A DNA stretch of 32,000 nucleotides, from NCBI GenBank assembly GCA_024275415.1, contig JAJRZD010000081.1:16215-48214 (forward strand). Direction: 5' to 3'. The translations under genes were made by a program, and so were the position numbers. Source of the stretch: an archaeon (GTDB taxonomy: Archaea; Asgardarchaeota; Thorarchaeia; Thorarchaeales; Thorarchaeaceae). The notes under the pieces are model-generated. The model made no database searches and was not told the origin of the DNA. It worked only from the letters and a program-made list of their open reading frames with translations. This document shows, piece by piece, positions 1,474-31,047 of this stretch. Each line of letters begins with the position of its first letter. Positions within the stretch are counted from its first letter, which is position 1.

Positions 1474-3027
1474 TCATGGAGTTGGGGCTTGGAATGGTAT
1501 GATGTTCGCAATTTCACTGACAACCGGCACAATGACATCTAGTGCAACACCCGGGAATATCCCAAAGAATACGATAAGGAATCCCAGAATGATCATCGGG
1601 ACTGTCATGGAACGCGGCCCTTCGACAACATCCGCAAGTTCTTGAGGGTGCGGGCCTAAGAATACCTTCCATAGGAATCTGAGCATGTAGCCTGCACTCA
1701 ATATCGAACTTAGTACAGCCAGTATACTGAGACCCAGCATCAATGGCTGCACAATGGCTTCACTTCCTGGAGGTGCGGCAGCATGGAACCCTCCAACGAA
1801 CATCATCCACTCACTCGCAAATCCAGACAGCGGTGGACTACCTGCAATGCTCATCGCACCGATTGCAGCCATGAATGCCGTAATGGGCATCTTGTTAGAA
1901 AGGCCTCCCATCTCGTCGATGTTACGTAGTCCGGTCTGGTGCATCACTGCTCCAGCAGTCATGAATAGCAAGCCCTTTGAGAATGCGTGGTTTATTAGAT
2001 GGAAGAGACCTCCTGATACGCCATAGACCGAGAAGACACCCAGAGCAAAAAGGACATAGCCCATCTGGCTCACAGATGAATACGCAAGCAATCTCTTGAT
2101 GTCTTTCTGAACGAGTGCCATGAACCCACCGTAGAACATGGTAATTACACCAATCGCAGCAACATATACCGAAAGGTCAAATGCGGCAGAACCGAGGGTA
2201 ATGGTGCCGAACCGTACGAGCGCATATGCGCCAGTTTCAATCATAGCACCTGACAGGAGGACCGAAATGGGCGTAGGAGCCTCAGCATGAACGGGAGGGA
2301 GCCACCAGTGAATCGGGAACACAGCTAGCTTCACCAGAAATCCTGCAGCGAGTAAGATGAATATGATCTTCAATAGCTCCGATGCACCGACATATGACGC
2401 AATCATTCCTTGGATGACTGCCAGCTCGAATGTCGTGGCGCCACTGAGGAAATAGAGAAGACCGAAGCCGATAAGGATACAGACAGCTCCACTCTGAGTG
2501 TATAACCAGAACTTGAGAGCGGTTCGTTTCCGGGTTTCAGGAAGTCCCCAGAACAGAATCAGGAAGTAAGAGGGCACCAGCATGAGTTCCCATGCGATGA
2601 AGAACTCGATGAGGTTTGTCGCAAGGGTGACCCATTGCATACCCATAATGAAAAAGAGCTGGTTTGCAAAGAACGTCGGGCGACTGTGCTCGTGGGATGT
2701 ATAACCCACTGCATAAACAACTGAAAGGAATCCCAGAATGACTACTGCAAAAGTGATTGGGAACGCGATCCCATCGAGCCTGAGACCGAATGCCCCTAAG
2801 ATGTCGGACCATGCAAGGGTCTCTTGAGCAATGTTATACAAGCGCTCTTCGAACATGACACGGTAGAACGGAGGTAGCATCAGAACTACTGCGAGCCCCG
2901 ATACCAACGCAGCAATCTTTCCTGCGCTTTTTTCCAGCCTGCCTCTCATAAGGTAGATGGCAAGAGCTCCAATAAAGAGCACAGCGAGAGATGTGCCCAT
3001 GAATGGAAATTCAAACGCAGTCTGCAT
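1474..3027 (-). CDS. nuoM: Complex I-like antiporter subunit NuoM
   Basis: FFIAWELMLVPSYFLILFWG, KLAVFPIHWWLPPVHAEAPTPISVLLSG, DIKRLLAYSSVSQMG, HAFSKGLLF, AGSPPLSGFASE; multi-TM, 517 aa. Confidence 0.9.
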   Translation of the reverse strand: MQTAFEFPFMGTSLAVLFIGALAIYLMRGRLEKSAGKIAALVSGLAVVLMLPPFYRVMFEERLYNIAQETLAWSDILGAFGLRLDGIAFPITFAVVILGFLSVVYAVGYTSHEHSRPTFFANQLFFIMGMQWVTLATNLIEFFIAWELMLVPSYFLILFWGLPETRKRTALKFWLYTQSGAVCILIGFGLLYFLSGATTFELAVIQGMIASYVGASELLKIIFILLAAGFLVKLAVFPIHWWLPPVHAEAPTPISVLLSGAMIETGAYALVRFGTITLGSAAFDLSVYVAAIGVITMFYGGFMALVQKDIKRLLAYSSVSQMGYVLFALGVFSVYGVSGGLFHLINHAFSKGLLFMTAGAVMHQTGLRNIDEMGGLSNKMPITAFMAAIGAMSIAGSPPLSGFASEWMMFVGGFHAAAPPGSEAIVQPLMLGLSILAVLSSILSAGYMLRFLWKVFLGPHPQELADVVEGPRSMTVPMIILGFLIVFFGIFPGVALDVIVPVVSEIANIIPFQAPTP

Positions 3028-3459
3028 CTAACGAAACCTCCTTCCTCTCCACTCCAAAGGCTCTCTGTCGAGCGTTGTAATCTTTTCAGGGCCATAGATC
3101 AGGTCTTCTCGCTCTCCCTCTGCCATATCGACAATTGGAGTGTGGTAGAGGGCATCGAACCTGCAAGCGTCCACACAGAGCCCACAGAATATACAGCGGG
3201 TATAGTCAAAGTAGAGTGCAGCATCCTTCTCGTACATCTTATCTGCCTTGTCAATTCGGATGGCAAGAACTGGACAGGCACGCACACATTGAGCACAAGC
3301 TGTACAATTCTGACGGACATGTATGTGTCGCCCGCGAGTACGTTCAGGGTAGGGTCTATCCTCGAAGGGGTAGAGGCTAGTAAACGGTCTCTTGAAGATT
3401 TGTCGGAAGATATGCTTCAGTATGGTAAAGACTTCGCCAAGATTTCTAAGGAATCCCAT
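3028..3459 (-). CDS. nuoI: Complex I-like 2x[4Fe-4S] subunit NuoI
   Basis: FTSLYPFE...RGRH; CTACAQCVRACP and CIFCGLCVDACR ferredoxin motifs; located between nuoH and nuoM. Confidence 0.92.
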   Translation of the reverse strand: MGFLRNLGEVFTILKHIFRQIFKRPFTSLYPFEDRPYPERTRGRHIHVRQNCTACAQCVRACPVLAIRIDKADKMYEKDAALYFDYTRCIFCGLCVDACRFDALYHTPIVDMAEGEREDLIYGPEKITTLDREPLEWRGRRFR

Positions 3460-3465
3460 CTCATT

Positions 3466-4608
3466 CTAACCTCCCACAAGCAAAAGTGCCAGTCCAGGCA
3501 CATAGACAATGGCAAGCATTGCTATTATGACATTCAACATTGATAACGGCAGCAGGTACTTCCAGCAGTATCTCACAATTTGATCCTGCCTGAGCCTGTG
3601 AAACGATGAGCTCACTGTCACAAAGACAAAGAGCATGATCAAGAACTTGATGATGAAGTTCACTGCCCCAGGTAGCCATGGAACCCCATAGAAGCCTCCA
3701 AAGAAGAAGGTCACCATGAGGGCTGAATAGAGCATCTGCTCAGCAAACTCCGCAAAATAGGTAAGTGTGAAATAGACTCCTGAGAATTCCGTGCGCCACC
3801 CAAAGATGATCTCAGAATCTGCAACAGGAGCATCGAATGGGAACACACCTACAGAGATTATAGATGCAGTCAAGAACGTCGCGAAGTTGATTGGTAGCAG
3901 AAAGATGAACCAGACCGAACTTTGAGCTAGGGCAATACCCATGATGCTGAGAGACCCAGCCAGCATAGCAGGACCCACTGACGACATGATCATCGGAATT
4001 TCAGCGGCAAATTGATTGTTAGCAGCCCTGAATCCTCCAATAAGTGAGTATTTGGATCCACTTATCCATCCGGCAAGCAAAGCTATCACAGGTACTGCTG
4101 CAAGGAATGCGAATACGAGCACCAGACTGACAGATAGATCTGCAATGAACCAGACCGTGTCCCAAGGAATGAAAGCGAATGGAACCAACACCACCACTAA
4201 GAGCAGAGATGGCAAGAACCGGTATGCCCACCGATGCGCTTTGTCTGGAATGATGATCTCCTTGGATATCAACTTGATCGCATCAGCAAAAAGCTGGACT
4301 CCACCGTACTTGCCCATGTGCATCGGGCCCCGACGCATCTGGATACGTCCCCAGAGCTTTCGTGTGAACCAGACAAAAAAGATGAGCCCCATCACAACGA
4401 AGATGAGCCCTGGAAATATGACAGCTTTGAACAAGAAGAAGATATTGTCGATGACAAGCGTCCATAGAAGATTGATCACGACCCATAGCCAATCATATAT
4501 CCCATAGATGATTCCTCTAATCACCTCGATGATATTGAATACCCATTGTGGGAGTCCCCTTAGCCAATCTACGAACCATTCGAATTGCAAGACTGCGCCT
4601 CCTGTCAT
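3466..4608 (-). CDS. nuoH: Complex I-like membrane subunit NuoH with N-terminal extension
   Basis: RKLWGRIQMRRGP, GGVQLFADAIKLISKE, PFDAPVADSEIIFGWRTEFSG, FHRLRQDQIVRYCWKYLLPLS. Start chosen at the ATG overlapping the nuoD stop (TAATG); a TTG at 4590 after GGAGG is an alternative. Confidence 0.92.
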   Translation of the reverse strand: MTGGAVLQFEWFVDWLRGLPQWVFNIIEVIRGIIYGIYDWLWVVINLLWTLVIDNIFFLFKAVIFPGLIFVVMGLIFFVWFTRKLWGRIQMRRGPMHMGKYGGVQLFADAIKLISKEIIIPDKAHRWAYRFLPSLLLVVVLVPFAFIPWDTVWFIADLSVSLVLVFAFLAAVPVIALLAGWISGSKYSLIGGFRAANNQFAAEIPMIMSSVGPAMLAGSLSIMGIALAQSSVWFIFLLPINFATFLTASIISVGVFPFDAPVADSEIIFGWRTEFSGVYFTLTYFAEFAEQMLYSALMVTFFFGGFYGVPWLPGAVNFIIKFLIMLFVFVTVSSSFHRLRQDQIVRYCWKYLLPLSMLNVIIAMLAIVYVPGLALLLVGG

Positions 4609-5744
4609 TATCTGTCCCACCACCCCGGATACGGGTCTAGACTTCCGAATATCACAATGAAGTCAGCAAACCTCGCACTTGGAACCAAGTGCTTCAATGC
4701 ATAATATGAATGGAAACACGGCCCACGGATCTTGGCTCGATAAGGAGTCTGCGCCTTTTCCAATGTCTTTAACCAAAGCGAAGTGATGCCTCTTGCGCCC
4801 TCGACTCGGCCATATGCCTCTCCTTCTGGCAAGCGGTTAGCCTTGGCGCGTGCCTTGGGGTCAATAATCGGACCATCGGGAATCTGTGGAATAAGCTGTT
4901 TAATTATGTCCACTGAGGTCTTCACTTCGTTGAATCGCTGAACCATCCTGTCATAGGCATCACTCTCTCCTGGGTGGTCGGGGTGCTCTAGGATCGGAAC
5001 CTCCCAGTCCACCATATCATATGCCAGATTCGGATCCGGCTGATCCTTTCTCAAATCCATTGGGATGCCACATGCCTTGATGTTGGGTCCTGAAAGACCC
5101 CAGCGCAAAGCCTCTTTAGCCGAATATTGTCCTACGCCTTCAGTACGCATCCTGAAAAGTGGGCTTTTCATCAACATATCCTCGAATTTTGGCATGTTAT
5201 ATTCTAGCACTTGAATGGCTTTCTCCAGTTTTGCCAGAACTTTCTCAGTAAAGTCGAATCGTAATCCTCCAGGAGTGCTAAAATGCGGCGAGTGTCGCAC
5301 ACCTGTGAGTTCCTCGAAGGTATCCAGAAAGAACTCCCTGTCAACCCAGGGCCAGAGTGTCATCGCAAAGAATCCCATTTCAGCAGACAGCTGTCCCCAC
5401 CAGAATTGATAGGAATGTATCCTGCTGGCCTCCATCATGATCGTCCGGAGCACCTTTGCTCGTTCAGGTACTACTAACCCGGCGATCTGCTCTACAGCGC
5501 TGATATATGGGTACTCCGCAAGGAAAGCTTCGAGCATACATAATCGCTCAAGGATTGGTGAACCCTGTCGAAAGTTACGATACTCGAGGCATTTCTCTGC
5601 AGACCTGTGAAAATACCCGGCATGAGGATCACACTCCACTATGAAGTCGCCTACAAGTTTCAACTTGGTGGCCCAGCCATGGGCAGATACGTGCTGAGGT
5701 CCAAACCAGACCTCCACTGTTTCATCAAGGATGTCAGGTGTCAT
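4608..5744 (-). CDS. nuoD: Complex I-like subunit NuoD (hydrogenase-large-subunit fold without a NiFe site)
   Basis: FGPQHVSAHG, GYFHRSAEK, ELTGVRHSPHFSTPGG, EGARG, C-terminal GSLDPYPGWWDR. Only one of the four NiFe-ligand Cys positions is present (ERLCMLE). Confidence 0.9.
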   Translation of the reverse strand: MTPDILDETVEVWFGPQHVSAHGWATKLKLVGDFIVECDPHAGYFHRSAEKCLEYRNFRQGSPILERLCMLEAFLAEYPYISAVEQIAGLVVPERAKVLRTIMMEASRIHSYQFWWGQLSAEMGFFAMTLWPWVDREFFLDTFEELTGVRHSPHFSTPGGLRFDFTEKVLAKLEKAIQVLEYNMPKFEDMLMKSPLFRMRTEGVGQYSAKEALRWGLSGPNIKACGIPMDLRKDQPDPNLAYDMVDWEVPILEHPDHPGESDAYDRMVQRFNEVKTSVDIIKQLIPQIPDGPIIDPKARAKANRLPEGEAYGRVEGARGITSLWLKTLEKAQTPYRAKIRGPCFHSYYALKHLVPSARFADFIVIFGSLDPYPGWWDR

Positions 5745-6247
5745 TTCTTAGCACCTCCTTCAGGTCTGGGTTTCCTGACTGGAAGACCGGTTTCTGCTTG
5801 TCTGCTGCGGTCGGTCTGGAAGCTCTTACGCATCGGGTATTTGCCTACGAGCTCGTCCGGTAAAAGAAGCGGACGCAGGTCAGGATGACCCGTGAACATA
5901 ATTCCGAACATCTCGTGTGTTTCACGTTCGTGCCATTCTAAACCAGAAAAGATGTCACAGCATGCTGGGAGTGAAGGGTTCGAGCCCTCCAAGTTCACCT
6001 TGAGTTGGATGATCATCCGGTCTTTGTGCGACCAGAACATGTAGTTGACCTGGTACTTGTCATCACCCAGATCAACACCGAACGCGGATTCGGGAATAAC
6101 CTCTGGGAAAGTTTCATCGACCAAAGTGATGACATCGCGAATTATGTCCTTGCCCACTGTGAACTCGATGTGATGTTCGTTTATCGTCTTGACATCTATG
6201 TCAGGAAATTTGGTGGTGAATGTCCGCACAATCCCTGCTGCATCCAT
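5741..6247 (-). CDS. nuoC: Complex I-like subunit NuoC
   Basis: WHERETHEMFGIMFTGHPDLRPLLLP...YPMRKSF; its stop overlaps the nuoD start. Confidence 0.93.
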   Translation of the reverse strand: MDAAGIVRTFTTKFPDIDVKTINEHHIEFTVGKDIIRDVITLVDETFPEVIPESAFGVDLGDDKYQVNYMFWSHKDRMIIQLKVNLEGSNPSLPACCDIFSGLEWHERETHEMFGIMFTGHPDLRPLLLPDELVGKYPMRKSFQTDRSRQAETGLPVRKPRPEGGAKK

Positions 6248-6248
6248 C

Positions 6249-6560
6249 TCATTTCACCTCTGCTTGTACTGGACTGCCAAGATCCACATGTCCGTACCTG
6301 CGGTTGTACAATAGCATAAGAACCAAAGCAAGGGCTGTGTGTGCAGCTGCTATTGCGATCACTAGGATGACAAGTCCTTGAGGAGTGTAGGAGAAGACTC
6401 CGCCGTAGACTGCAAAAGCTACAAGGGCGATGTTCACACCATTCCCCATTATCTCAGCCCCGATAAGGATACGAATCAGGTTCCTTTTCACTATCATGCC
6501 ATAAGCACCTAGACCGATGAGCATGAATGCCACAACCAGATACCAACTCAGTGGAACCAT
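6249..6560 (-). CDS. nuoK: Complex I-like subunit NuoK
   Basis: GAYGMIVKRNLIRILIGAEIMGNGVN...AIAAAHTALAL; 3 TM, 103 aa. His stands where the second conserved Glu usually is (AAE). Confidence 0.9.
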   Translation of the reverse strand: MVPLSWYLVVAFMLIGLGAYGMIVKRNLIRILIGAEIMGNGVNIALVAFAVYGGVFSYTPQGLVILVIAIAAAHTALALVLMLLYNRRYGHVDLGSPVQAEVK

Positions 6561-7180
6561 CAGTTCGTTGCCTCCTCTGTCTTCTCATCATCGGGCATTG
6601 GGGCCGCCTCGACTCCGAACTCGGCTGTGATGTCCTTCAAGGTCTCTGCCTTTTCCATCTTCATCAGAGCGAGTGTCCCAACCAGTGTAGTAAGGATGAT
6701 CAAAGCAATAATTTGAACGTAGAGCCCGTGGGATTGCCAGAGCCATTCCGCCAGTCCTTGTAGACTCTGGGCATATTCCGGCATTCCTTGAGGGATGTCT
6801 GTTGACCATGGAAATACCAAAGCAAGCCCTCCAGACATTGCCATGACGAAAGCAGAAAGAAGCAGCCCTATTTTCCGTGCACGCGGCGAGGGAAGCACTT
6901 CCAGTGTCCGATCCTGTGCTCTGGGAAGAAGCAACACTCCAAATATGATCAATGCACTGATACCACCAGTGTATACCGCTATCTGCATCCCTGCTATGAA
7001 AGGCGCTTCAAGTAATAGGAAAAGTCCTGCAACGAAGCTTGCCATGACGCCAAAGAAGAAAGCAGCATATACTATGTCCTTGTGCTCAAGGGCCAGATAT
7101 CCAAATACCAAGATAATGCCAGCCAATAGGAGGAATTCGACTTGCTCGAATAGCTGCAGGAGTGGGTCTAGTTCTTGCAT
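6560..7180 (-). CDS. nuoJ: Complex I-like subunit NuoJ
   Basis: LEAPFIAGMQIAVYTGGISALIIFGVLL signature; five hydrophobic segments. Confidence 0.9.
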   Translation of the reverse strand: MQELDPLLQLFEQVEFLLLAGIILVFGYLALEHKDIVYAAFFFGVMASFVAGLFLLLEAPFIAGMQIAVYTGGISALIIFGVLLLPRAQDRTLEVLPSPRARKIGLLLSAFVMAMSGGLALVFPWSTDIPQGMPEYAQSLQGLAEWLWQSHGLYVQIIALIILTTLVGTLALMKMEKAETLKDITAEFGVEAAPMPDDEKTEEATN

Positions 7181-7191
7181 CTCATTTCACC

Positions 7192-7623
7192 TCAATGCAT
7201 GTGCTTAGTTTTCTGGGCTTTCTTGGCTTCATGATAGAGTTCCAGTGTTTCTTTCCCGTCCAGTGCTGCCTGCGGCAGAATCCTCATTGAAAAGCTGATG
7301 GCTCCCATGATGAGAGCAATGAAGATCAGTGCCTGCCAGAGAATAAGTGCCTCTAGCCTTAGGGTCGAGGCAGAGAGAAGCCAGAGAAAGGCGCCCATCA
7401 CGTCGATCACCACGAACAATATCGTATAGACGATGTAGTTGTAAGGGTAGGAAATACGGGCAGGGCCGATTGGATCCTCACCACATTCGTACGGGGATGT
7501 CTTTGAAGAGTTCTGAAGGACATGCGGTCGTAACACCCAAGAAGCCAGAAGCATCACAATGACAAGAACCACAGCCAGAAGGGCCCACACAACTACAGGA
7601 ATAAAATCCACAAATAGCCTCAT
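7192..7623 (-). CDS. nuoA: Complex I-like subunit NuoA
   Basis: KTSPYECGEDPIG...YTILFVVIDV. Start moved to ATG 7623, preceded by GAGGAGG. Confidence 0.92.
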   Translation of the reverse strand: MRLFVDFIPVVVWALLAVVLVIVMLLASWVLRPHVLQNSSKTSPYECGEDPIGPARISYPYNYIVYTILFVVIDVMGAFLWLLSASTLRLEALILWQALIFIALIMGAISFSMRILPQAALDGKETLELYHEAKKAQKTKHMH

Positions 7624-7707
7624 AATCCAGATTCCTCCTCGCTCAGATGAAGGGGTTGATAGCATCTGCGAATAACCTTGGCAATCCTAGACAGTTTGGA
7701 ATAGGTG

Positions 7708-7715: not shown

Positions 7716-8116
7716 CGACTGGACAGGACTATGACACAAGGTCGAACGACACGCGATGCTGACCACACAGAATCGTTCCCAGTGCCGTTTCTGGGAGGAC
7801 AAAACTCTGGTGTCCGGATTTGCCCCGATTACAATTAACGGTAGGTAACTCATCGCTTGACCAGTGAAATCAATGATCGACGTTTGAAGCATTATTAGTC
7901 CTTCTCTTAATGTTTCCATGTGATCGATTGCGAGCGACAGGAATAGTAACCAAATGATAAACTTCTCGTTCATCTTTGGAACAAGCCCTGTAGCTTGAGA
8001 ATGGCGACATGCACTGCCCTATTAAAAACTCTTCGCAGGACGGGGTCTTTCTCGGAGAAGTTAAATATCCCAGTTATTCCTTACAGGCTTGGTTCAAAAC
8101 CGTTAGGAGAAAGATA

Positions 8117-8467
8117 ATGTTGAATCGAGACGAAGGAGGTTTCTTCTACTATGTTGCCCTACTGGCTGGAATGTTTCTCATCGGCACGTACCTATGGCAT
8201 ATCCTAGTCACACCTACTGGATATCAAGGATTCCATTTCATCATGTATGCCACTGGGTTCCTGTTACCTGTTTCAGCATTTGGATTTGCATTCGCAAAAG
8301 CAAGAACTTCGCGGGTGGGGTTAACTGTCATCACAGGGGTAATTGCAGGCATTCATTTCTTCTTAGAAATCACACTATTTGGGTCATTCGTGGGTGTGAT
8401 ACTGTTCGCGTGGATGTCGTTTGGCTTACTCCTCGCTTTTGCAGCTTTCAGTTGGTTGCTTGAGTGA
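8117..8467 (+). CDS. Small hypothetical membrane protein (~4 TM)
   Basis: ATG 8117 after AGGAG; 116 aa, almost entirely hydrophobic. The track's 8009 start adds a non-hydrophobic leader. Confidence 0.75.
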   Translation: MLNRDEGGFFYYVALLAGMFLIGTYLWHILVTPTGYQGFHFIMYATGFLLPVSAFGFAFAKARTSRVGLTVITGVIAGIHFFLEITLFGSFVGVILFAWMSFGLLLAFAAFSWLLE

Positions 8468-8488: not shown

Positions 8489-8980
8489 TTACTCTTTTTC
8501 AGTTTCTACCGTTGTAGCTTCTAATTCAAATTCGACATCAGGAGCAACAGGACCATAATGGAGCTTGCTCACATCCATTATCCCTTCGGTGTATGCTTCG
8601 TCATCACGCGTCATCTTCAACATTGCTGCACCACCAGATGCGACGATAGCAGAACCGATTCCCCACGAGGCATACCAGATCGTGTCAGCTACGTCCCATT
8701 GGAATGACACAAGAGTCAGGATAATGAACATGACTGACACAAAAGATGCGATAGATAGAAACAGGTTCTTCATCTTCCCTCGATCGGGTACGAAATAGCC
8801 AAGTAGCAACACCGACAACAGAATGGGGCCACCAAGTAGAAAGGCCAGATTGGAAGTTTCGAAGGCCGCTGACCCTGTGGTCATCTTGAAGATGAACTCA
8901 ACAAAATATGCGGTCATCATCACGACTCCAATCCAGAACATGCAATACCTATCTGCGTCCTCATTCAACCTGCGATTCAT
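8489..8980 (-). CDS. Hypothetical 4-TM membrane protein with acidic C-tail
   Basis: Four hydrophobic helices. Start overlaps the stop of the upstream fusion gene (ATGA at 8980-8977). Confidence 0.8.
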   Translation of the reverse strand: MNRRLNEDADRYCMFWIGVVMMTAYFVEFIFKMTTGSAAFETSNLAFLLGGPILLSVLLLGYFVPDRGKMKNLFLSIASFVSVMFIILTLVSFQWDVADTIWYASWGIGSAIVASGGAAMLKMTRDDEAYTEGIMDVSKLHYGPVAPDVEFELEATTVETEKE

Positions 8981-10932
8981 TGGATCATCCCCATTGCATC
9001 TTGATTCTCGTATTTCCTCTGCCAGTGCGTTGTACCGGCACGAATCTTGTTCTGAAGGATAAGATGGGCTCTAATGAAATCTACGGGCTTGGGGGGGCAT
9101 CCTGGCAGGTATACATCTACAGGCACGACCTTCTCAGGGGGAGTCATCAAGGAATATCCATCCCAGAACAACCCGCCACTGGCCGCACATTGCCCGAAGC
9201 TTATGACGTATTTTGGTTCGGGCATCTGTTCATAGATACGGCGTAGTCGGGGAGCCATCTTCTTCGTGAGGGAGCCCGCAATCCACAGCACATCTGCCTG
9301 CCTTGGACCAAATAGAGGAAGCATTCCAAAGCGCTCTATGTCCCAACGGGATGCTACTGCTGCTGCACCGTCCACCATGCAACACCCAATACCGTACTGT
9401 ACTGGCCACGGACTATGTGCACGGCCCCATCTCAGCATCCATTTGAGTGGCGGAAGGTTCTGCAACCATTTCAACAGGATAGGTGCAATTCGCCCAAACC
9501 CATTTCGGAAGAGATCATAGCCAATCCACATGAAGTACTTCCCAATTTTAAGGATGAACGGTAACCAGTAGGCAAAGATCTTCCCTGGATTAGCAATCTC
9601 GTTTTTATCGAGTTTCAATTTCGCAGCCCGTATCTTTGCAAGTCTGCGCTCGCCAAAGTATTGCGGAGCATAGTTTGCAAACCAAATCCCAATCCCATGG
9701 GGGTGTCCACCGTGTCGTTGTGCAATCTTGAATATGACAAAACTCTGGGACCATGAAAGCATGAAGAATCTGCGCCGCTCGTCTTCAAGGAAGTAGCCCA
9801 TGATTGTGACACCGTTCTTTGAGGTCACATACCCGTCAATGCCGGCCCTTGCTGACGCCTGCTCGAACTGAAAGTCAGAAAGCACAGCCTCCAGATTCTC
9901 TAATGGAGCAAAGGCCTGCCCGACGACCAATGTGGGCCCTGCCTTCTTCACGCGCATCGGATAGAATCGATCCTTCCATTCGTGGGCAGCAACATGCTCA
10001 TCATATACTGTGCCATGATATTGTTCTGTGATGTTGCGAACGACCTCAAAGCCTTCTTCAATCTCCTCCTCTGTCCCTTCGTAAGCGATGAGGACAGTAC
10101 CATGATGCACTGGGAATGGAAACGGCTCATCTGAGTCCCAAATCTGCTTCTTGAGGTCAGTGTATTTGGACTCCTCGAACTTGATCGTATAGGGTAGGGG
10201 TCCTTCTTCAATCATCTTCTCCATCGCAAGAACCATTTGATAGTTCTCAGGAAAGCTTACCACGATAGGCTTGACTGGCATAAGGGGCTTGACCCTAAGG
10301 CGAATCTTCGTAATGATGCCCAAGATGCCCTCGGTATCGCAAAAGAGGTCTGTGTCAGTACTGGTTATTATCTTGCCATCAGGCAGAACCACTTCGAAGC
10401 TTAGAACATTGTCATTGATCTTCCCGTATTTCAAGGAGCCAATCCCATCGCCTCCTTGAGCCACCCATCCACCGATAGTGGCTGACAACCCAGACGACGG
10501 ATAGCATCGGAGATCCAGTCCAACTCGGTTCAGTTCGAATTGAAGATTTGCCCAGGAAATGCCTGGTTCCACAAGAACCGTCTGGTTCGCTTCGTCAATT
10601 TCGAGAACATTATCCATCCTGCGCATATCAACAATGACCCCTCCCTTACGAGGGATCGCGCCTCCATACCCACTTGTTCCCGCACCTCTGGGAATGATAG
10701 GAATTTTCTCTTCGTTGGCAATCCTGTATAAAGATTGTATTTCTTCAGGAGTTTCTGGTTGAACAGCTGCATCAGGGTTGTTATTCATCATGTAGCCGAC
10801 CTGTTTGGGTAGTGCACCTACATCAGTAGAGAAAATGACTAACTCATGCTTTGATGTGATCAGCCGGTCGCCAAAAACGTGTGATAGTTTCTCGAATTGC
10901 TTTTTCTTGAGTCCCATCGGAGATGTCTCCAT
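8977..10932 (-). CDS. nuoB: Fusion: FAD-linked oxidoreductase (FAD_binding_4/FAD-oxidase_C, GlcD-like) + complex I subunit NuoB
   Basis: N-part has PRGAGTSGYGGAIP, VEPGI, ATIGGWVAQGG.G..SLKYG, EGILGIIT and ends at NPGKIF. C-part has WGRAHSPWPVQYGIGCC, PRQAD, MPEPKYVISFGQCAASGG, VDVYLPGCPP. Single uninterrupted frame; start could be ATG 10917. Confidence 0.93.
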   Translation of the reverse strand: METSPMGLKKKQFEKLSHVFGDRLITSKHELVIFSTDVGALPKQVGYMMNNNPDAAVQPETPEEIQSLYRIANEEKIPIIPRGAGTSGYGGAIPRKGGVIVDMRRMDNVLEIDEANQTVLVEPGISWANLQFELNRVGLDLRCYPSSGLSATIGGWVAQGGDGIGSLKYGKINDNVLSFEVVLPDGKIITSTDTDLFCDTEGILGIITKIRLRVKPLMPVKPIVVSFPENYQMVLAMEKMIEEGPLPYTIKFEESKYTDLKKQIWDSDEPFPFPVHHGTVLIAYEGTEEEIEEGFEVVRNITEQYHGTVYDEHVAAHEWKDRFYPMRVKKAGPTLVVGQAFAPLENLEAVLSDFQFEQASARAGIDGYVTSKNGVTIMGYFLEDERRRFFMLSWSQSFVIFKIAQRHGGHPHGIGIWFANYAPQYFGERRLAKIRAAKLKLDKNEIANPGKIFAYWLPFILKIGKYFMWIGYDLFRNGFGRIAPILLKWLQNLPPLKWMLRWGRAHSPWPVQYGIGCCMVDGAAAVASRWDIERFGMLPLFGPRQADVLWIAGSLTKKMAPRLRRIYEQMPEPKYVISFGQCAASGGLFWDGYSLMTPPEKVVPVDVYLPGCPPKPVDFIRAHLILQNKIRAGTTHWQRKYENQDAMGMIQ

Positions 10933-11118: not shown

Positions 11119-12342
11119 ATGGAATTTCCTAGTCTCAAAGCATACGGACTCCAAGATATGCCTTTTACATGCGCCCAATGCAGCTTTTGCCAGGTTGGCA
11201 ATGGAGCGTGTCCCACATACAAAGTGAAACGCCTTGATAGCTACTCCGGTAAGGGGAAGATGGTGATTGCCCGTAACCTGTTGCAAGGACGCCTTAGACC
11301 ATCTGAGGGGCTCGAAGGGCTAAGGGATGCTATCTTCAATTGTACACTGTGTGGTGGGTGTGAAGAAATATGTCAGGTAGATATCCCCTTTGTGAAGATC
11401 TATCAGCTGTTACGACACGAGTTCCTAAAGAGAGACATGTGGCCTCATGGACTTATGATGGCTAGGGACACTCTTCTAAAGACAAACAACATCCAGGGAC
11501 AATCCCAGATGGATCGCATCGAAGGCTGGTCCTATTGGCATCCTGATGAAGATATGGTACTAGACCTCCAAGGAAAGAAAGCCAAGACCGCTTTCTTCGT
11601 TGGATGTACCTCGTCATTCAAAGGAGTGTCAATTCAGGCAACCATCGCTTCCACTCTCGTTTATGACAAGGCCGGAGTCGATTTTACACTTCTGGGCGAG
11701 GAGGAATGGTGCTGTGGCGCACCGATGATAATGACGGGAGATTTTGACACTGCTAGGAAGTATGCCATGCACAACATCGAGAAGTTCCATGAGCTCGGTG
11801 TTGAGAGAGTTGTCACAAATTGCCCAGGCTGTTACAAAATGTGGGCTCACGAATATCACGAGTTCTTGGATATTGACCACGGTCTTGAGATTCTGTACGG
11901 TGCCGAATTTCTGATGGAAATCCTTGATGAGAACAAGCTGGATTTCAATACCCCCTTGGATAAGGGCATCACGTTCCATGATGGATGTGATGCTGGTAGA
12001 AATGCTGGATTCTATGAGGAACCTCGGAAGGTCTTGGAGTACATTCCAGGAATCGAGTTCGAGGAGTTACCGCACAACAAGGCCAATAGTTACTGCTGTG
12101 GTTCAGGGGGCGTCCTTAGAGCTGTAGACAATGACTTTGCAGTCAAGATAAACGAGCTTAAGGTGAAGGACATTGAAGCCACAAATGCTGAAATCGTCGT
12201 ATCACACTGTCCCTCCTGCGTTGACTTCATGCATAACCAATTGCCCGGTGCGGGCTCAAGCAAGACCTCGAAGGATCTAGTCGTACTGGTTGCACAGGCA
12301 TTGGGACTAGAGTGGGAAGGTCTTGAGGAAATCTATGGCTAG
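11119..12342 (+). CDS. HdrD/GlcF/GlpC-like Fe-S oxidoreductase (2x[4Fe-4S] + two CCG domains)
   Basis: CAQCSFC...CP, CTLCGGCEEIC; FVGC...WCCG...CPGC and HDGC...YCCG...CPSC. Start moved to ATG 11119 after GAGGT. Confidence 0.9.
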   Translation: MEFPSLKAYGLQDMPFTCAQCSFCQVGNGACPTYKVKRLDSYSGKGKMVIARNLLQGRLRPSEGLEGLRDAIFNCTLCGGCEEICQVDIPFVKIYQLLRHEFLKRDMWPHGLMMARDTLLKTNNIQGQSQMDRIEGWSYWHPDEDMVLDLQGKKAKTAFFVGCTSSFKGVSIQATIASTLVYDKAGVDFTLLGEEEWCCGAPMIMTGDFDTARKYAMHNIEKFHELGVERVVTNCPGCYKMWAHEYHEFLDIDHGLEILYGAEFLMEILDENKLDFNTPLDKGITFHDGCDAGRNAGFYEEPRKVLEYIPGIEFEELPHNKANSYCCGSGGVLRAVDNDFAVKINELKVKDIEATNAEIVVSHCPSCVDFMHNQLPGAGSSKTSKDLVVLVAQALGLEWEGLEEIYG

Positions 12343-12407
12343 TACTGGACAGGCACACACACCGGCAGTAGGTAATCAAATAAGCCAGTGTGCATGTTAT
12401 AGAAATA

Positions 12408-13661
12408 ATGCCATTGCGCAAGGATGAACTAGAGGATAGGTGGCTATACGAGCAGATTGTCGAAAGAGTGCCTCCGTTCAAATGGTTACCGCCCACATTC
12501 GATGTGATGACTCAGCTGTTGTTAGTCGAAGCTGGGGGGATTCTCGCATTCCTGTACTTCCGTTTGCCAAATGAGGCTATCTTCTTAGGCACGTTGGCGA
12601 TACTCTATACGGTCGTCTGGTCCGCTGGCTGTCTCTATGTCATCCCTTTTTTGAGGAAACTACGGGATCCTACGAACGAAGAGGAACGCCGTGTCCTTAC
12701 AAAGTACAAACACGACCTTCTTGAGGATAAGATGCTCGAGCTGATTGGAAGCATCGCATGTTACATCGCAATCACGTCGTATCTGTTATATGACCAAGAA
12801 TTGCTTCACCGGTTCCTTGGTCAGGGCTACGGAAATCTCATTCTTTATGGACTCCTGCTAATCCTCTCATGGGATATTGCATACAGGTTATGGCTTTCTT
12901 TCTTCACGGCATTCTCATCGGCACGCAGATCCATAAGCTTAGCGAGAGCAGCAAGAAAGAGAAGAGGTCTCAAATACACAGCTTATTCAGAAGTGCAAAC
13001 GCTAAAATCACTAGATATGATCAATCTCTACTGGGCCGCTTCTGCAGTCCTGCTAGTCCCAATTGCCATTTCCACTGAGATATTGCTCTATTCAATCGTT
13101 GCATTCTTTCTTTCCATTGTGATCCTGTCATTCGTGAGCCTGCTGGCGATGGAAACGATACCCTGGTTCCCACCGGATGTCGAGGACATCCTCTTGAGAG
13201 AAAGGTTTGCCTATGTGGCTGCATACAACAAGTCAACCCTTCACACAACTCCAGTGATCTTCGTCTACGACGGGAAATACATCTATTTCGCAATCAGCGT
13301 GAAATCAGCAAAATACCGGTTGATAAAGAAGAACAATAGGATTGCAGTTCTTGTAGATATGAGGGACGCCAAGAACGCAATGAATAACAGGTCAATACTA
13401 ATGCGTGGGAAAGGACTTGTCCTCGGACAGGTCAGCCCCTTCGGACTTATCCGGTTGTTCCTGTACGGCCTGTGGATGTTGAGAGTAAGATCCCTGTTCT
13501 GGAAAAAATACCCCATGTATATGCGATATTATAAAGAAGAGGCTGACTCAATCCCGCTGGCATGGCAGGATAAGCCCTTCGTGTCACGGGTTCTCGTAAG
13601 GCTCCAAGTAGAGAAAGCGACATACTGGAGAGAGGCGTTGCCGACATTCCTAAGGGTGTGA
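12408..13661 (+). CDS. Membrane protein with C-terminal PNPOx-like (split-barrel flavin/F420/heme-binding) domain
   Basis: Several N-terminal TM helices, then FAYVAA...HTTPVIFVYDGKYIYF..SVKSAKYRLIKKNNRIAVLVD. Start ATG 12408 (track GTG 12390). Confidence 0.7.
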   Translation: MPLRKDELEDRWLYEQIVERVPPFKWLPPTFDVMTQLLLVEAGGILAFLYFRLPNEAIFLGTLAILYTVVWSAGCLYVIPFLRKLRDPTNEEERRVLTKYKHDLLEDKMLELIGSIACYIAITSYLLYDQELLHRFLGQGYGNLILYGLLLILSWDIAYRLWLSFFTAFSSARRSISLARAARKRRGLKYTAYSEVQTLKSLDMINLYWAASAVLLVPIAISTEILLYSIVAFFLSIVILSFVSLLAMETIPWFPPDVEDILLRERFAYVAAYNKSTLHTTPVIFVYDGKYIYFAISVKSAKYRLIKKNNRIAVLVDMRDAKNAMNNRSILMRGKGLVLGQVSPFGLIRLFLYGLWMLRVRSLFWKKYPMYMRYYKEEADSIPLAWQDKPFVSRVLVRLQVEKATYWREALPTFLRV

Positions 13662-13723
13662 TCTAATGAGTCTAACAATAAGAGTCGTTGGAGGGATATA
13701 AGAACGTGACAGCAAAGCATTGT

Positions 13724-14173
13724 ATGATGCGACTGCATACAGGAGCCAGAAAGATATTGCGTGAAGGGTTCTTCGCGTACTTCACAACTGGGAATCCAAG
13801 ATCGTTCCCACACATCACAACAATGTTCTATATCTGGGACGAGGAATCATGTACATTCTATGTGATCACATCTGAATCGACAAAGAAGGTGAAGAATATC
13901 CAGCAGAACCCAAATGTCGCCCTCACCATTGATGAGCGTGACCCGCTGTCGCCTGCTGGTAACTGTGGTGTCTTGGTTCGTGGAAAGGCAAGAGTAATCC
14001 CCATCGAGGAGATGGGTGACATCCTCATGAACAAATACTGGGCAAAATACCTTAACGTCCTCGGACAGGGTTTTCCTATGGGCTCACGCTTGGCGATAGA
14101 AATCACTCCTCGTGTGATTCACTATTGGAGCGGAATACACTTCTTCAAGTGGGTTGACCACAGACACGCATGA
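13724..14173 (+). CDS. PNPOx-like (pyridoxamine 5'-phosphate oxidase family) split-barrel protein
   Basis: PHITTMFYIWD...FYVITSESTKKVKNIQQNPNVALTID...GVLVRGKARVI. Confidence 0.85.
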   Translation: MMRLHTGARKILREGFFAYFTTGNPRSFPHITTMFYIWDEESCTFYVITSESTKKVKNIQQNPNVALTIDERDPLSPAGNCGVLVRGKARVIPIEEMGDILMNKYWAKYLNVLGQGFPMGSRLAIEITPRVIHYWSGIHFFKWVDHRHA

Positions 14174-14343
14174 CATGAACAATATCGTACATAGACTGAA
14201 TCGTTATTCGAAAGGCCTTACTATAGACGCTTACTTGTAGATAGTGAAACGGGAGCCTGAGATTCACTTGATACAATCCTGCTGCCCCCCTCAGAGCTCA
14301 CCAATCGCTGCATCATAAGACGACAGCATATCTTAGATATGTG

Positions 14344-15390
14344 TTACATTGCCGGAGGAGGTCGCGTCAGGTTACGGTACTGGATAGCACAAATCACGAC
14401 TAGGACTATTCCCGCAATGGCCAGATAGATCAGATTTGATGTAAAACCCTTGAGGATATACCCTGCTGTGAGGCTCAGTGTAATGAGAAGATGTAGCATG
14501 ATAGTCGCGGCGTTGGCGGGAACCAACCGATTCGGAGCCTCATACTCTCGCATCATGATTCGTACTCCCAAATAGCCCAACGGAATTAACGTCAGAGCGA
14601 GGAGCGATTCAAACGCAATCAGCCCACTCACGACACAAACGACAATCCATACGAACACAGCTGCTATAAGAACAGCATAGCCCTTCGCAGCTTTCTCGCG
14701 TCCAAGCCGCACCACAACCGTTCTTTTTCCAGAATCCCTGTCTGCTGCATAGTCCTGAAATTCATTGATATAGAGAATCCCAGCAACAAGAAGTGCTGTA
14801 GGTATCGACGCAAGTATTGGCTCAAGAAGGATGTTCTGAGCTTGAACGTAGTAGGATCCGAGTACCATCAGAACGCCAAAATTAAGGCCGATAAATATCT
14901 CCCCAATGCCACGCTTCACCAATCTGAACGGAGGTGCGGAGTAGAACAGCCCAGACGCAGCACCTATCATGCCAAAAACAAGGATCAGGATGCCTCGAGT
15001 CAGAGCGAGATATACACCTATCAAACCAGTGATTGCAAAGAAGACCATAGATTCAGCCAGCACCTCACGAGGTGTTAGAAGACCAAGCTGAATCATCCGA
15101 CTCCCACCAGTGAAAGGACGGACGAATTCCGTGTTTATATCATCCGAACCCGTGTTCTCTGGAGTGTGGTCGAAATAATCGTTCGACACATTGGCTGCAA
15201 TGTGAAGAAATGCTCCTGCAATGACCGTCAAGAGAAAGACATCAAGCAGGAAAACCCCAGTCGTAGCCCAAGCTATCGCTGTGCCCAGAAAGACAGGTGA
15301 GATAGACGCGGTCAAGAATGGTGCTCTCAATTCCAGAAAGAACGCCTTCTTCTTAGATATTTGCATTGGCTCCTGAATGATTTCCGTCAT
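14344..15390 (-). CDS. menA: 1,4-dihydroxy-2-naphthoate polyprenyltransferase (UbiA family)
   Basis: LRAPFLTAS, ANVSNDYFD, FTGGSRMIQ, YSAPPFRL, INEFQDYAADRDSGKRTVVVRLG. Confidence 0.85.
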   Translation of the reverse strand: MTEIIQEPMQISKKKAFFLELRAPFLTASISPVFLGTAIAWATTGVFLLDVFLLTVIAGAFLHIAANVSNDYFDHTPENTGSDDINTEFVRPFTGGSRMIQLGLLTPREVLAESMVFFAITGLIGVYLALTRGILILVFGMIGAASGLFYSAPPFRLVKRGIGEIFIGLNFGVLMVLGSYYVQAQNILLEPILASIPTALLVAGILYINEFQDYAADRDSGKRTVVVRLGREKAAKGYAVLIAAVFVWIVVCVVSGLIAFESLLALTLIPLGYLGVRIMMREYEAPNRLVPANAATIMLHLLITLSLTAGYILKGFTSNLIYLAIAGIVLVVICAIQYRNLTRPPPAM

Positions 15391-15541
15391 CAGCTCTATG
15401 CCTCAATATGCAGTTTCGTAGATAGTCCATTCAAAACCTTTGCGGTGAGTTTTCAGAATTCCTTAAATGTAGAAAGTGTATCTGCGGAGCAACGCCAATA
15501 CGAAGGCAAACCTTTTGAACTGATACGAGAAGGTCGCAAAC

Positions 15542-16567
15542 ATGGATACATTGGATTACCTTTCCGACAGACTCGACAAAACGTCGGACAGCATTTTTCT
15601 CACAGACCTTCTCAAGAATGAAGATATCAAATCACGATTAGAGATGATCAATTCAGAGATAGATATCCATCTAGGAAAGGATGGAGAACCAAAGATTCTG
15701 TACGAAACGGCAAAGCATCTCCTCAAGGCAGGCGGGAAGAGACTACGTTCGTTGTTAGTAGTGCTCTGTTGTGAAGCGGTCGGAGGTGACATCACCAAGG
15801 CAGTTCCATTCTCTGTAGCCATCGAGCTGGCACAAACGGCCAGTCTTATCCACGATGATGTGATTGATGAGGACACACTCCGCAGAGGTGTGCGGTCAAC
15901 ACACGAACAGTTCGGCCATAAGATGGCAATTTTGGCTGGAGACCTCCTTGTGGCTCAGGCTGTCAAGATGATTGGAAGTCTTGGCACACCAGAGATAATT
16001 GTACAGATTGCAGAGGAGGGAATCAGGATGTGCGAGGGGGAGGCTGCAGATATACTCCTCAATGCTGACAACCCGAATGCCATGACAATCGAAAACTATC
16101 TTGAGATGATTCAGAAGAAGACTGTATCATTCATCAAGGCTGCAACGTCGGTGGGTGCTTCCATCGGCAAGGGCACGAAGGAGCAAATCAGCTCGTTACG
16201 CAGGTATGGAGAGAATCTGGGATTCGCATTCCAGATCCGTGATGATGTGCTCAACATAATCTCATCGTCTGACATCTCAGGAAAGGATGAATACAGTGAC
16301 CTCCTTTCGAAAAGATGCACATTCCCTTTGGTTCACGCTTTGGACAAATCATCGCCAGAGGATAGAGAGCGGTGTTTGCAGGCACTATCTGAGGGTGACA
16401 TGTCTGTCGCCCTTCATCTCGTTGAAAGGACTCGGGCAATCCCAGCTTCCATCGAGAAAACTACAGAGTACATCAGAAAGGCAAAGGCCACATTGAAAGA
16501 GCACGATTTTGTGAACGCACATCTTCTAGAACAGGTAGCCGATTTCGTTCTCCAGAGACTGCACTAG
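15542..16567 (+). CDS. trans-Polyprenyl diphosphate synthase, probably medium/long-chain
   Basis: GGKRLR, ASLIHDDVIDEDTLRRG (FARM), AILAGDLL, KKT, FQIRDDVL. Confidence 0.9.
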   Translation: MDTLDYLSDRLDKTSDSIFLTDLLKNEDIKSRLEMINSEIDIHLGKDGEPKILYETAKHLLKAGGKRLRSLLVVLCCEAVGGDITKAVPFSVAIELAQTASLIHDDVIDEDTLRRGVRSTHEQFGHKMAILAGDLLVAQAVKMIGSLGTPEIIVQIAEEGIRMCEGEAADILLNADNPNAMTIENYLEMIQKKTVSFIKAATSVGASIGKGTKEQISSLRRYGENLGFAFQIRDDVLNIISSSDISGKDEYSDLLSKRCTFPLVHALDKSSPEDRERCLQALSEGDMSVALHLVERTRAIPASIEKTTEYIRKAKATLKEHDFVNAHLLEQVADFVLQRLH

Positions 16568-19629: not shown

Positions 19630-19632
19630 ATA

Positions 19633-20010
19633 ATGCAAGGATTTCCTAATTATCATATGACCATTCTACTTGGACTCCCAGCAATCATTCTGTTGGGTAT
19701 TGGTGCACTACTTTACGAGATATCAAGAGAGAAGTACACACGACACCACGGCATTTGCGCAGGTCTTTCGATTCTTCTTACGACAATCAACATCATCGGC
19801 ATCATCCCAACAACTATCATTGTACTGACAGGGACATGGTTCGATTTATTTCACATCGCTCACATTCTTATCGGGATCGTTGGATATATCTTCGGAGTGG
19901 TCGCGTTCATCACTGGAATTTCGGGAATAAGAACAAAAATACCCGGATACATCGCTCTTATCTCGTGGACGACGGTATTCGTGATGGGCTATGTGCAGTA
20001 TCTACTATGA
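19633..20010 (+). CDS. Small 4-TM membrane protein, DUF420/cytochrome b561-like His pattern
   Basis: Four TM helices; H8, H38-H39 (RHHG), H74/H77 (FHIAHILIG). Family call by resemblance only. Confidence 0.6.
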   Translation: MQGFPNYHMTILLGLPAIILLGIGALLYEISREKYTRHHGICAGLSILLTTINIIGIIPTTIIVLTGTWFDLFHIAHILIGIVGYIFGVVAFITGISGIRTKIPGYIALISWTTVFVMGYVQYLL

Positions 20011-20020
20011 GGTGGTTGCT

Positions 20021-21499: not shown

Positions 21500-21502
21500 A
21501 TC

Positions 21503-30525: not shown

Positions 30526-31047
30526 TCAAGTGTCATGCGAGTTGATATCTTTGAGGATTGTAGATATACGTTCCTTTAACTCATCGATGTTGTGTCCGGT
30601 CTTCGAACTAACGGATATGTAGTCGATTCCACCGAGAATATCGCGGTATCGACGGATCTCTTCTTCGTCGATTCGGTCAGATAAATCAGATTTGGTTCCC
30701 ACAAGCAGTTTTCTCTCAAGAGGGAGATGCATAGTGATACTAGCCCATTCGGCGAGAGCAATTAATGTTCGATATTTAGTGCAGTCAAAGACCAGTAGTG
30801 CAATTTTGGCTCCAACAATAAGGGGTGTCTGAAAAAACCGGAATTGCTCCTGGCCTCCAAAGTCAAAAAGTGATGCTTTAATCATATGCGAGTTGTCAGT
30901 AGAAATCAGCCATGATTCAACATCAAATCCGACAGTCATTTCCACGTCAATGTAATCGCCAGATATTACTCTCCGGATTAATGTGCTTTTTCCTACTCCC
31001 CCAGCACCAAGAACCACAAGCTTGACCGTTTTGATGTTGTCAGGCAT
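30526..31047 (-). CDS. Ras-superfamily small GTPase (Rab/Roc-like)
   Basis: G1 GAGGVGKS, G2 MTVG, G3 DFGGQ, G4 TKSD, G5 SSK; 173 aa; no C-terminal prenylation Cys. Confidence 0.92.
   Translation of the reverse strand: MPDNIKTVKLVVLGAGGVGKSTLIRRVISGDYIDVEMTVGFDVESWLISTDNSHMIKASLFDFGGQEQFRFFQTPLIVGAKIALLVFDCTKYRTLIALAEWASITMHLPLERKLLVGTKSDLSDRIDEEEIRRYRDILGGIDYISVSSKTGHNIDELKERISTILKDINSHDT

Follow-up and report, generated by a model that had tools for sequence, protein, structure and literature searches.

This study concerns a flavoprotein-NuoB fusion gene and the nuo operon beside it in an Asgard archaeon of the family Thorarchaeaceae (GenBank assembly GCA_024275415.1, contig JAJRZD010000081.1). 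Both lie in a stretch of 32,000 nucleotides (positions 16,215 to 48,214 of the forward strand), here called the window; positions are given in window coordinates. A single minus-strand open reading frame (ORF; 8977..10932, 651 amino acids (aa)) encodes a flavin enzyme and NuoB. The likely start is the ATG at 10917, giving a protein of 646 aa; an in-frame ATG further upstream, at 10932, would give 651 aa. The ATG at 10917 is preferred because homologues are uniformly 646 aa long. The gene and its three parts are as follows:

8977-10917, minus strand: fusion gene (flavoprotein, amphipathic tail and NuoB), from the ORF, three Pfam domains and full-length homologues
9553-10917, minus strand: flavin domain of the VAO/GlcD fold, residues 1-455, from Pfam, alignment to mouse LDHD (8jdb) and an AlphaFold2 (AF2) model
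9415-9567, minus strand: three-helix amphipathic tail, residues 451-501, from alignment to unfused orthologues, AF2 and hydrophobic moments
8980-9447, minus strand: NuoB domain, residues ~491-646, from NCBIfam nuoB_fam and alignment to NdhK/Nqo6

Pfam placed the flavin adenine dinucleotide (FAD) domain FAD_binding_4 at residues 53-190 (E 6e-41), FAD-oxidase_C at residues 223-452 (E 1e-13) and Oxidored_q6 at residues 518-622 (E 8e-24; 84.2 bits vs. a cut-off of 27). The NuoB part was also above the NCBIfam subfamily cut-offs (NF005012, 180 bits vs. 116; TIGR01957 nuoB_fam, 173 vs. 143). The ligands of cluster N2 (Cys512, Cys513, Cys577 and Cys607, in the motifs GCC, GQC and PGCPP and including the tandem CC) matched those of NdhK and Nqo6 in the alignment, and the fused NuoB aligned better with these two proteins (E ~1e-43) than with MbsJ (8e-31) or MbhJ (5e-27). 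Homology to canonical NuoB starts at approximately residue 24 of the latter, and only its short N-terminal extension is replaced. The flavoprotein ends in NPGKIF at ~9574 and NuoB homology runs from ~9447. The tail helices occupy residues 451-472, 474-486 and 491-501 in the AF2 model, in which the fusion domains are folded (predicted local distance difference test, pLDDT, ~90 for the flavin domain and 52-61 for the tail). Hydropathy analysis found no stretch of the tail hydrophobic enough to span the membrane; the helices and their hydrophobic moments (0.51-0.63) suggest an in-plane membrane anchor. The original prediction, made from the window alone, had described complete flavin domains, an amphipathic linker and NuoB with its four N2 cysteines in one frame, joined at these positions, and this description was borne out in each respect.

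The class-wide search covered 87 Thorarchaeia species genomes. Approximately 52 of them (genera g1-g12) harboured the full-length fusion with one continuous frame across the junction and 75-88% identity, and further fusion matches were cut by contig ends. Database homologues were full-length (646 aa, 74-90% identity), and the fusion was also present in the closed 3.16 Mb chromosome CP070761.1. In one genome (G023:C5:93253-95186) the gene was split into two overlapping frames near residue 430, so that this copy is either a pseudogene or affected by a sequencing error. This frame change might favour the view that the fused gene is non-functional or arose only in assembly or annotation, two adjacent genes having been merged through sequencing error. 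However, the break lies inside the flavin domain and not at the junction, the frame is unbroken in the ~52 independently assembled genomes and in the closed chromosome, and the operon lacks any other nuoB. The artefact reading is effectively refuted and retains a negligible probability; we have high confidence that the fused gene architecture is real.

We searched 1.84 billion protein cluster representatives exhaustively with HMMER, and the combination of FAD domains and NuoB occurred in a single 50%-identity cluster. P0315, considered as a second lineage with the same architecture, was rejected as a tandem Oxidored_q6 protein harbouring no flavoprotein. Databases label the fusion proteins simply as NuoB. 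Full-text searching of the literature found no description of a flavoprotein-NuoB fusion, in line with the earlier, tentative suggestion that the architecture might be new. In published surveys covering archaeal fusions and complex I variants, B-C and B-C-D are the only NuoB fusions reported (PMC11237513, PMC12361115), and a recent study of Asgard complex I-like enzymes makes no mention of the flavoprotein-NuoB form.

Downstream of the fusion lie a membrane protein gene, a small membrane protein gene on the opposite strand, and then nuoA-J-K-C-D-H-I-M'-L with no nuoB:

8489-8980, minus strand: 163-aa membrane protein with 3-4 hydrophobic segments, its start overlapping the stop codon of the fusion (ORF; hydropathy)
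8009-8467, plus strand: small membrane protein (152-aa ORF) between the 163-aa gene and nuoA (ORF)
7192-7665, minus strand: NuoA (Pfam Oxidored_q4)
6560-7180, minus strand: NuoJ (Pfam Oxidored_q3)
6249-6560, minus strand: NuoK (ORF; the L018 orthologue carries Oxidored_q2)
5741-6247, minus strand: NuoC (Pfam Complex1_30kDa)
4608-5744, minus strand: NuoD-like subunit (Pfam; PDB alignments; motif comparisons)
3466-4623, minus strand: NuoH (Pfam NADHdh, E 9e-84)
3028-3459, minus strand: NuoI with 2x[4Fe-4S] (Pfam Fer4 families)
1474-3027, minus strand: M', an extra antiporter-like subunit ahead of NuoL (Pfam Proton_antipo_M)
1-1461, minus strand: NuoL-like subunit, cut at the window edge (Pfam Proton_antipo_N and Proton_antipo_M)

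Detailed synteny was inspected in 13 genomes representing at least 10 genera. The order A-J-K-C-D-H-I-M'-L-M-N was the same in all 13, with the 163-aa and 152-aa genes nearby, and the fusion and the 163-aa gene stood directly upstream of the nuo operon in nine of them. A nuoB between nuoK and nuoC was found in none (0/13), nor was there a nuoB anywhere in the operon in any of the 13, confirming the absence that had been claimed for the window. The operons of relatives go on with L, M and N after M', giving four antiporter-like subunits (M', L, M, N). Counting the M and N of these relatives, all core subunits of a head-less complex I or Fpo-like complex (A, B, C, D, H, I, J, K, L, M, N) are present. 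NuoF was not found in the source genome, which is 92.9% complete, and the complex is one without NuoEFG. By analogy with NDH-1 and Fpo-like complexes, NuoI is presumed to be the ferredoxin-facing end of the cluster chain.

The source genome has one NuoH and one NuoD, both encoded in this operon. A stand-alone NuoB elsewhere in the genome was rejected: each of the four other Oxidored_q6 genes abuts a [NiFe]-hydrogenase large subunit gene and encodes a hydrogenase small subunit. Because these genes belong to hydrogenases, the fused NuoB is the sole candidate for the B subunit of the pump.

The two small membrane proteins belong to no known family and may both be lineage-specific accessory subunits. 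The 163-aa protein had no Pfam or NCBIfam match, and an Atlas search was uninformative. Its gene adjoins the fusion in 12 of the 13 genomes and lies upstream of nuoA in the remaining one (G007). The product of the 152-aa ORF is probably ~116 aa long, starting at Met37; its homologues measure 118-140 aa, apart from two genomes where the gene calls give 168 and 213 aa, and occupy the same position in 12 of the 13 genomes, while in G005 the gene is ~2 kb from nuoA. Neither protein was found beside the operon with stand-alone nuoB in genome G001.

This last genome and two other sources of unfused genes bear on the origin of the fusion. Genus g14 (G075, G076 and also GCA_004524445.1) harbours an unfused flavoprotein orthologue of ~499 aa (57-58% identity), encoded in a CCG-then-flavoprotein operon that adjoins MenA-like and polyprenyl synthase genes. 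The g14 genomes contain only true group-4 hydrogenases and no Nuo-type complex. These unfused orthologues keep a hydrophobic/amphipathic tail of ~45 residues and end in PPLKW; in the alignment, the NuoB of the fusion begins exactly there. The linker is therefore the flavoprotein's own C-terminal tail. Among the fusions, the tail was 71-91% identical, compared to 70-86% for the flavin domain.

G001, from another family of the order, has the operon A|J-K-B-C-D-H-I-M'-L-M-N with a stand-alone nuoB (152 aa, 49% identical to the fused domain) and no flavoprotein orthologue. A JGI metagenome contig (L044, 384-1369) carries nuoA, then a stand-alone nuoB of 185 aa with 59% identity to the fused domain, divergent from nuoJ, and then a radical SAM gene; this order may be an intermediate arrangement. 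The fused form co-occurs with the Nuo complex of the ERLCM type (the NuoD motif discussed below) in genera g1-g12. These comparisons show the fusion to be the derived state, and nuoB would have moved from within the operon (J-K-B-C-D) to a place beside nuoA (A-B) before it was fused. Relatives with separate genes, together with a stand-alone nuoB used by this operon, had been named as a finding that would count against the fusion. They do exist, for nuoB in G001 and L044 and for the flavoprotein in g14, but no stand-alone nuoB serves the fusion operons in the 13 genomes, and separate genes in relatives do not refute a derived fusion.

The flavin domain has the fold of GlcD and D-lactate dehydrogenases (FAD_binding_4 plus FAD-oxidase_C), and its FAD-binding motifs are intact. 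It failed the equivalog cut-offs by a wide distance (TIGR00387, 154 bits vs. 568; PRK11230, 97 vs. 897; YdiJ, 95 vs. 1350). The His/His/Glu metal and substrate site (GHxGDGNxH ... EHGxG) was absent in the HMMER alignment to mouse LDHD (8jdb), where GHVGDGNFH is replaced by GYVTSKNGVT and GEHGIG by HPHGIG. The same loss was seen in all close relatives, including bacterial proteins of 900-1050 aa in which this flavin domain is fused to Fer4 and CCG domains. Because the metal site is lost in the domain and in all of these relatives, the protein is not a demonstrated hydroxyacid dehydrogenase. Judged by its motifs, it belongs to an uncharacterised VAO-family subfamily marked by RFYPMRxKxxGP and DER. 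Thus, the label of a GlcD-like FAD oxidoreductase fits the two-domain fold but neither the equivalog score nor the active site, and the organic substrate of the original prediction, if a 2-hydroxyacid, is unproven.

The subfamily recurs in other fusions. In another archaeon it is fused to NrfD (P0243, 40% identical to this flavin domain), and in many bacteria it is fused to Fer4 and CCG. A redox rather than a structural role of the flavin domain is favoured because of these fusions to NrfD and Fer4/CCG modules. The locus of the NrfD-flavoprotein fusion (L045:3758-10657, GCA_046760505.1) also encodes two multihaem cytochromes c and an NrfC-like Fe-S protein, with a CCG gene and a UbiE-like methyltransferase gene nearby. 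P0366 (1391 aa, metagenomic) combines three GcvH (lipoyl carrier) domains with the same flavin domain, Fer4 and CCG, and hints that some members of the family act on a protein-bound disulfide. In the window itself, the plus strand at 17884-22720 holds genes for two further flavoproteins of the VAO type, 581 and 502 aa long, along with an ORF of 125 aa and a further CCG protein; in the alignment, both of these flavoproteins were also without the hydroxyacid dehydrogenase motifs.

Divergent from the fusion lies the gene of an iron-sulfur protein:

11119-12342, plus strand: HdrD/GlcF-like protein, 407 aa, with 2x[4Fe-4S] and 2x CCG (Pfam, NCBIfam; synteny; predicted complex)

All cysteines of this protein are invariant, and its orthologues (407-409 aa) are encoded on the same contigs as the fusion. 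The two genes are head-to-head in 12 of the 13 genomes, the CCG gene lying ~5 kb upstream in the other (G045). No cytochrome b gene is present at the locus. We carried out a controlled complex prediction with residues 1-500 of the fusion and the 407-aa protein in three runs. The interaction prediction score from aligned errors (ipSAE) was 0.88 in all three runs, compared to 0.00 for the best control; in calibration, 58 of 80 solved complexes and 2 of 110 mismatched pairs attained this value. Contacts agreed between runs to at least 95%, and the pLDDT of the partner was at least 89. In the predicted interface, the ferredoxin-like 2x[4Fe-4S] domain of the CCG protein (residues 13-88) faces flavoprotein residues 20-34, 79-81, 142-145, 318-330 and 379-381. 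These include both signature motifs of the subfamily (RFYPMRxKxxGP at 318-330 and DER at 379-381), and the tail lies outside the interface. No similar solved complex was found by sequence search.

The model thus predicts that the flavin domain binds the CCG protein through the latter's 2x[4Fe-4S] domain, and only through the fused flavoprotein is an association of the CCG protein with the pump suggested. The implication that NuoB had taken the place of the usual CCG partner is contradicted by the conserved head-to-head gene and by the predicted complex. Other FAD/CCG pairs stand beside true group-4 [NiFe]-hydrogenase operons with their own small subunits in two loci (L025, G053:C3; L027, G075:C7).

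The NuoD-like subunit is unusual at the site where quinone is bound in canonical enzymes. Its closest solved match was MbsL of P. furiosus (E 1.6e-61), followed by Nqo4 (2.9e-56). It keeps the equivalent of His38 (T. thermophilus numbering), and Tyr87 is replaced by Met. The motif is ERLCM, compared to DR(L/V)(D/E)Y in every quinone-type NuoD among the distant homologues compared, and DPYPGWWDR takes the place of the C-terminal NiFe motif. ERLCM and DPYPGWWDR are invariant in the Thorarchaeia NuoD orthologues, the next relatives being only ~35% identical; the G001 orthologue has a two-cysteine pattern as in MBS (RACFLE / DVCPADLDR). A hydrogenase function for NuoD was rejected, as one of the four NiFe cysteines is left (RLCMLE, DPYPGWWDR). 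The paralogous Thorarchaeia complexes keep all four (RICGIC/DPCxSCxDR) and are true hydrogenases.

MqnA/D, MqnC and MenD were not found in the 92.9%-complete genome, that is, no menaquinone head-group pathway was found. Canonical quinone reduction by N2 is doubtful because Tyr87 is lost and this pathway was not found. A prenylated carrier may be the acceptor instead, or electrons may pass directly to another protein. Two prenyl-metabolism genes lie beyond the CCG gene:

14344-15390, minus strand: MenA-like prenyltransferase (NCBIfam menA TIGR00751, 113 bits vs. 102)
15542-16567, plus strand: polyprenyl diphosphate synthase (synteny)

Genes of these two kinds were found near the CCG/flavoprotein pair in both fused and unfused lineages (L017, L026, L029, L033-L043). 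Next to the CCG gene, positions 12390-16567 and 22772-23962 of the window together hold genes for a DUF7530 plus PNPOx-like protein, a PNPOx-like protein, the MenA-like and polyprenyl synthase proteins and a GGR-like reductase. This PNPOx/MenA/GGR-like cluster may make an unknown prenylated redox carrier.

A further possible input was considered. An orphan FrhB/FpoF-like gene (2x[4Fe-4S], FrhB_N and FrhB_C) was found at G000:C66:30691-31761 (L047:5692-6762), away from any hydrogenase. The gene is present in all 17 Thorarchaeia genera, including those without a Nuo-type complex, and its distribution does not track the complex. The source genome has two CofE genes; CofH was not found in it.

We consider that the FAD/CCG module and the pump may act in series as a reversible, ion-translocating ferredoxin:X oxidoreductase, a reading that we favour over a simple input module and to which we give about an even chance. 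In this arrangement, the tail would probably lie along the surface of the membrane where NuoB rests on NuoH, at the foot of the peripheral arm. The fusion would attach to the pump a complete flavo-iron-sulfur oxidoreductase with FAD, two CCG sites and two [4Fe-4S] clusters. Electrons from ferredoxin would enter at NuoI, pass N6a/b and N2, and exit from N2 to the CCG/FAD module, either directly or via a lipid carrier that is cycled locally and produced through the adjoining MenA-like genes; reduction of X would take place at the CCG or the flavin site. In the reverse direction, driven by the ion gradient, electrons from XH2 would be pushed up to ferredoxin. What is inferred here is that the coupling is in series, that the partner is ferredoxin, which way the electrons flow and what X is. 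A narrower and more tentative proposal is that the fusion is the genetic fossil of a supercomplex in which the pump and an HdrD-type flavo-iron-sulfur enzyme exchange electrons directly, with no free quinone pool.

The original prediction had taken the fusion as an electron-input module. In that model, electrons taken from an organic substrate by the flavin domain reach N2, directly or via the CCG clusters, and N2 reduces a membrane quinone with forward ion pumping, the module thus being a built-in replacement of NuoEFG or FpoF. Several observations agree with it: the complex is without NuoEFG, another input may be needed since the FrhB/FpoF-like gene does not track the complex, the flavoprotein is covalently joined to the N2 subunit, enzymes of the GlcD type are normally dehydrogenases, and MenA-like and polyprenyl synthase genes lie beside the flavoprotein/CCG pair. 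What stands of the earlier proposal is that the fusion is real, provides the sole NuoB and belongs to a complex without NuoEFG. The oxidation of an organic substrate coupled to pumping fits less well, as the hydroxyacid site is gone and the GlcD equivalog score failed, NuoD is without its quinone-ligating Tyr and no menaquinone head-group pathway was found. Moreover, entry at N2 would bypass NuoI, yet NuoI is conserved. From standard potentials, and with an ion-motive force of typical size, a pump with four antiporter-like subunits would need ~0.4 V for each electron pair; transfer from ferredoxin to an acceptor near -200 to 0 mV would meet this need, while lactate to menaquinone would supply only ~0.12 V. 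The series arrangement from ferredoxin is favoured because of this need for driving force and the conservation of NuoI, and we regard the input model as rather unlikely.

It is also improbable that the fusion is a tether without electron transfer in series. Two independent membrane-associated enzymes would then be co-localised or co-assembled, the joining of the amphipathic tail to NuoB being fortuitous and the flavin domain an appendage for assembly, anchoring or redox sensing, and any exchange would occur via a general carrier pool. Such a tether would agree with parts that function apart (flavoprotein and CCG protein in g14, stand-alone NuoB in G001 and L044), with a tail that takes no part in the predicted FAD-CCG interface and with the loss of known catalytic residues from the flavin domain. 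It is harder to reconcile with a fusion that has persisted in at least 12 genera with 75-88% identity, with a highly conserved tail, intact FAD motifs and a strictly retained CCG partner, or with the independent fusions of the subfamily to NrfD and Fer4/CCG modules, which point to a redox role.

The series arrangement is itself weakened by several points. The AF2 model has low confidence for the tail (pLDDT 52-61) and gives no usable inter-domain geometry for cofactor distances. The case for ferredoxin as the donor is made solely by analogy and from the absence of NuoEFG, and the flavin site may even have no catalytic role. Each machine can work on its own, as lineages without the fusion show. 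The fusion is apart from the nuo operon in 4 of the 13 genomes (~25 kb away in G007, ~6 kb in G025, and on another contig in G003 and G024). Finally, FAD/CCG pairs are numerous in Thorarchaeia genomes, and their adjacency to membrane complexes could partly be due to chance.

The closest parallel is found in Methanomassiliicoccales, where a head-less Fpo-like complex coupled directly to HdrD was proposed as a ferredoxin:heterodisulfide oxidoreductase of the energy-converting type (PMC7374477, citing Lang 2015, Kroninger 2016, 2019). Both systems have no NADH or F420 head and an HdrD-type CCG protein, for which the locus here encodes no cytochrome b subunit HdrE, and direct coupling between pump and CCG protein is proposed for both. 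Here, by contrast, the CCG-binding flavoprotein is covalently fused to NuoB/FpoB, there is an added FAD site and there are four antiporter-like subunits; no methanogenesis or coenzyme M/coenzyme B context is known (biosynthesis genes of these coenzymes were not searched for).

As in canonical NuoB, Nqo6, PSST, NdhK and FpoB, the fused domain (~50% identical to NdhK) has tandem-Cys ligation of N2 and is the sole NuoB of a nuo operon, but a flavoprotein of 500 residues, tail included, stands in place of the first ~24 residues. The NuoB fusions known so far are to NuoC/D (PMC11237513, PMC12361115), whereas the partner here is a flavoenzyme. With enzymes of the GlcDEF, Dld-II and YdiJ types the protein shares the two flavin domains, the pairing with a Fer4 plus 2x CCG protein and a likely membrane association, but it fails the GlcD/YdiJ equivalog cut-offs and has no His/His/Glu metal site. 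FpoF/FqoF of the archaeal F420H2 dehydrogenases is likewise a flavin module on an archaeal complex I homologue without NuoEFG; it is a separate, dissociable subunit of the FrhB family, whose fold is unrelated to the VAO fold of the module here.

MBS of Pyrococcus furiosus (PDB 6u8y) resembles the present complex in its MbsL, the best solved match of NuoD, in the remnant NiFe cysteines and in the lack of a quinone Tyr. It differs in that NuoB is here of the complex I type (E 1e-43 vs. 8e-31 to MbsJ) and in the presence of NuoA/J/K/H and a long NuoL instead of Mrp-type subunits. The extra NuoM-like antiporter subunit is shared with 2M-type complex I, for which it was proposed that more ions are moved per electron and that the enzyme may run in reverse toward ferredoxin (Chadwick et al. 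2018, as cited in PMC9040806). The present complex is archaeal, its genes are ordered differently, it has no NuoEFG, its NuoD site is non-canonical and its NuoB is fused to the flavoprotein.

Elsewhere in the window, a Ras-family small GTPase typical of Asgard genomes (30526-31047, minus strand), a full-length MutS (24881-27478, plus strand) and a rubrerythrin (31345-31755, plus strand) are encoded.

The system amounts to a pump of the complex I-like kind to which a new redox module is hard-wired. New in this work are the origin of the tail, the relatives with stand-alone nuoB, the replacement of Tyr87 by Met throughout the NuoD clade, the quinone head-group pathways not found in the genome, the FAD-CCG prediction with its controls and the NrfD parallel. 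The analysis also defines an uncharacterised flavoprotein subfamily that was repeatedly joined to membrane redox modules (NuoB, NrfD, Fer4/CCG).

The fusion is relevant to the question of how electrons enter and leave the head-less complex I homologues found in anaerobic archaea and bacteria. Direct Fpo-like/HdrD coupling was never shown physically, and the gene fusion is strong genetic evidence for a flavo-iron-sulfur oxidoreductase on the N2 subunit. One polypeptide and one partner protein on a pump with a non-canonical NuoD site constitute a defined target for structural biology and biochemistry. If the supercomplex without a free quinone pool were confirmed, it would be a new reversible ferredoxin:X respiratory machine in Asgard archaea, X being a disulfide or an organic acceptor, and the first hard evidence for the long-proposed direct coupling of the Fpo-HdrD type. 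The energy metabolism of Asgard archaea bears on models of the origin of eukaryotes and on carbon cycling in anoxic sediments.

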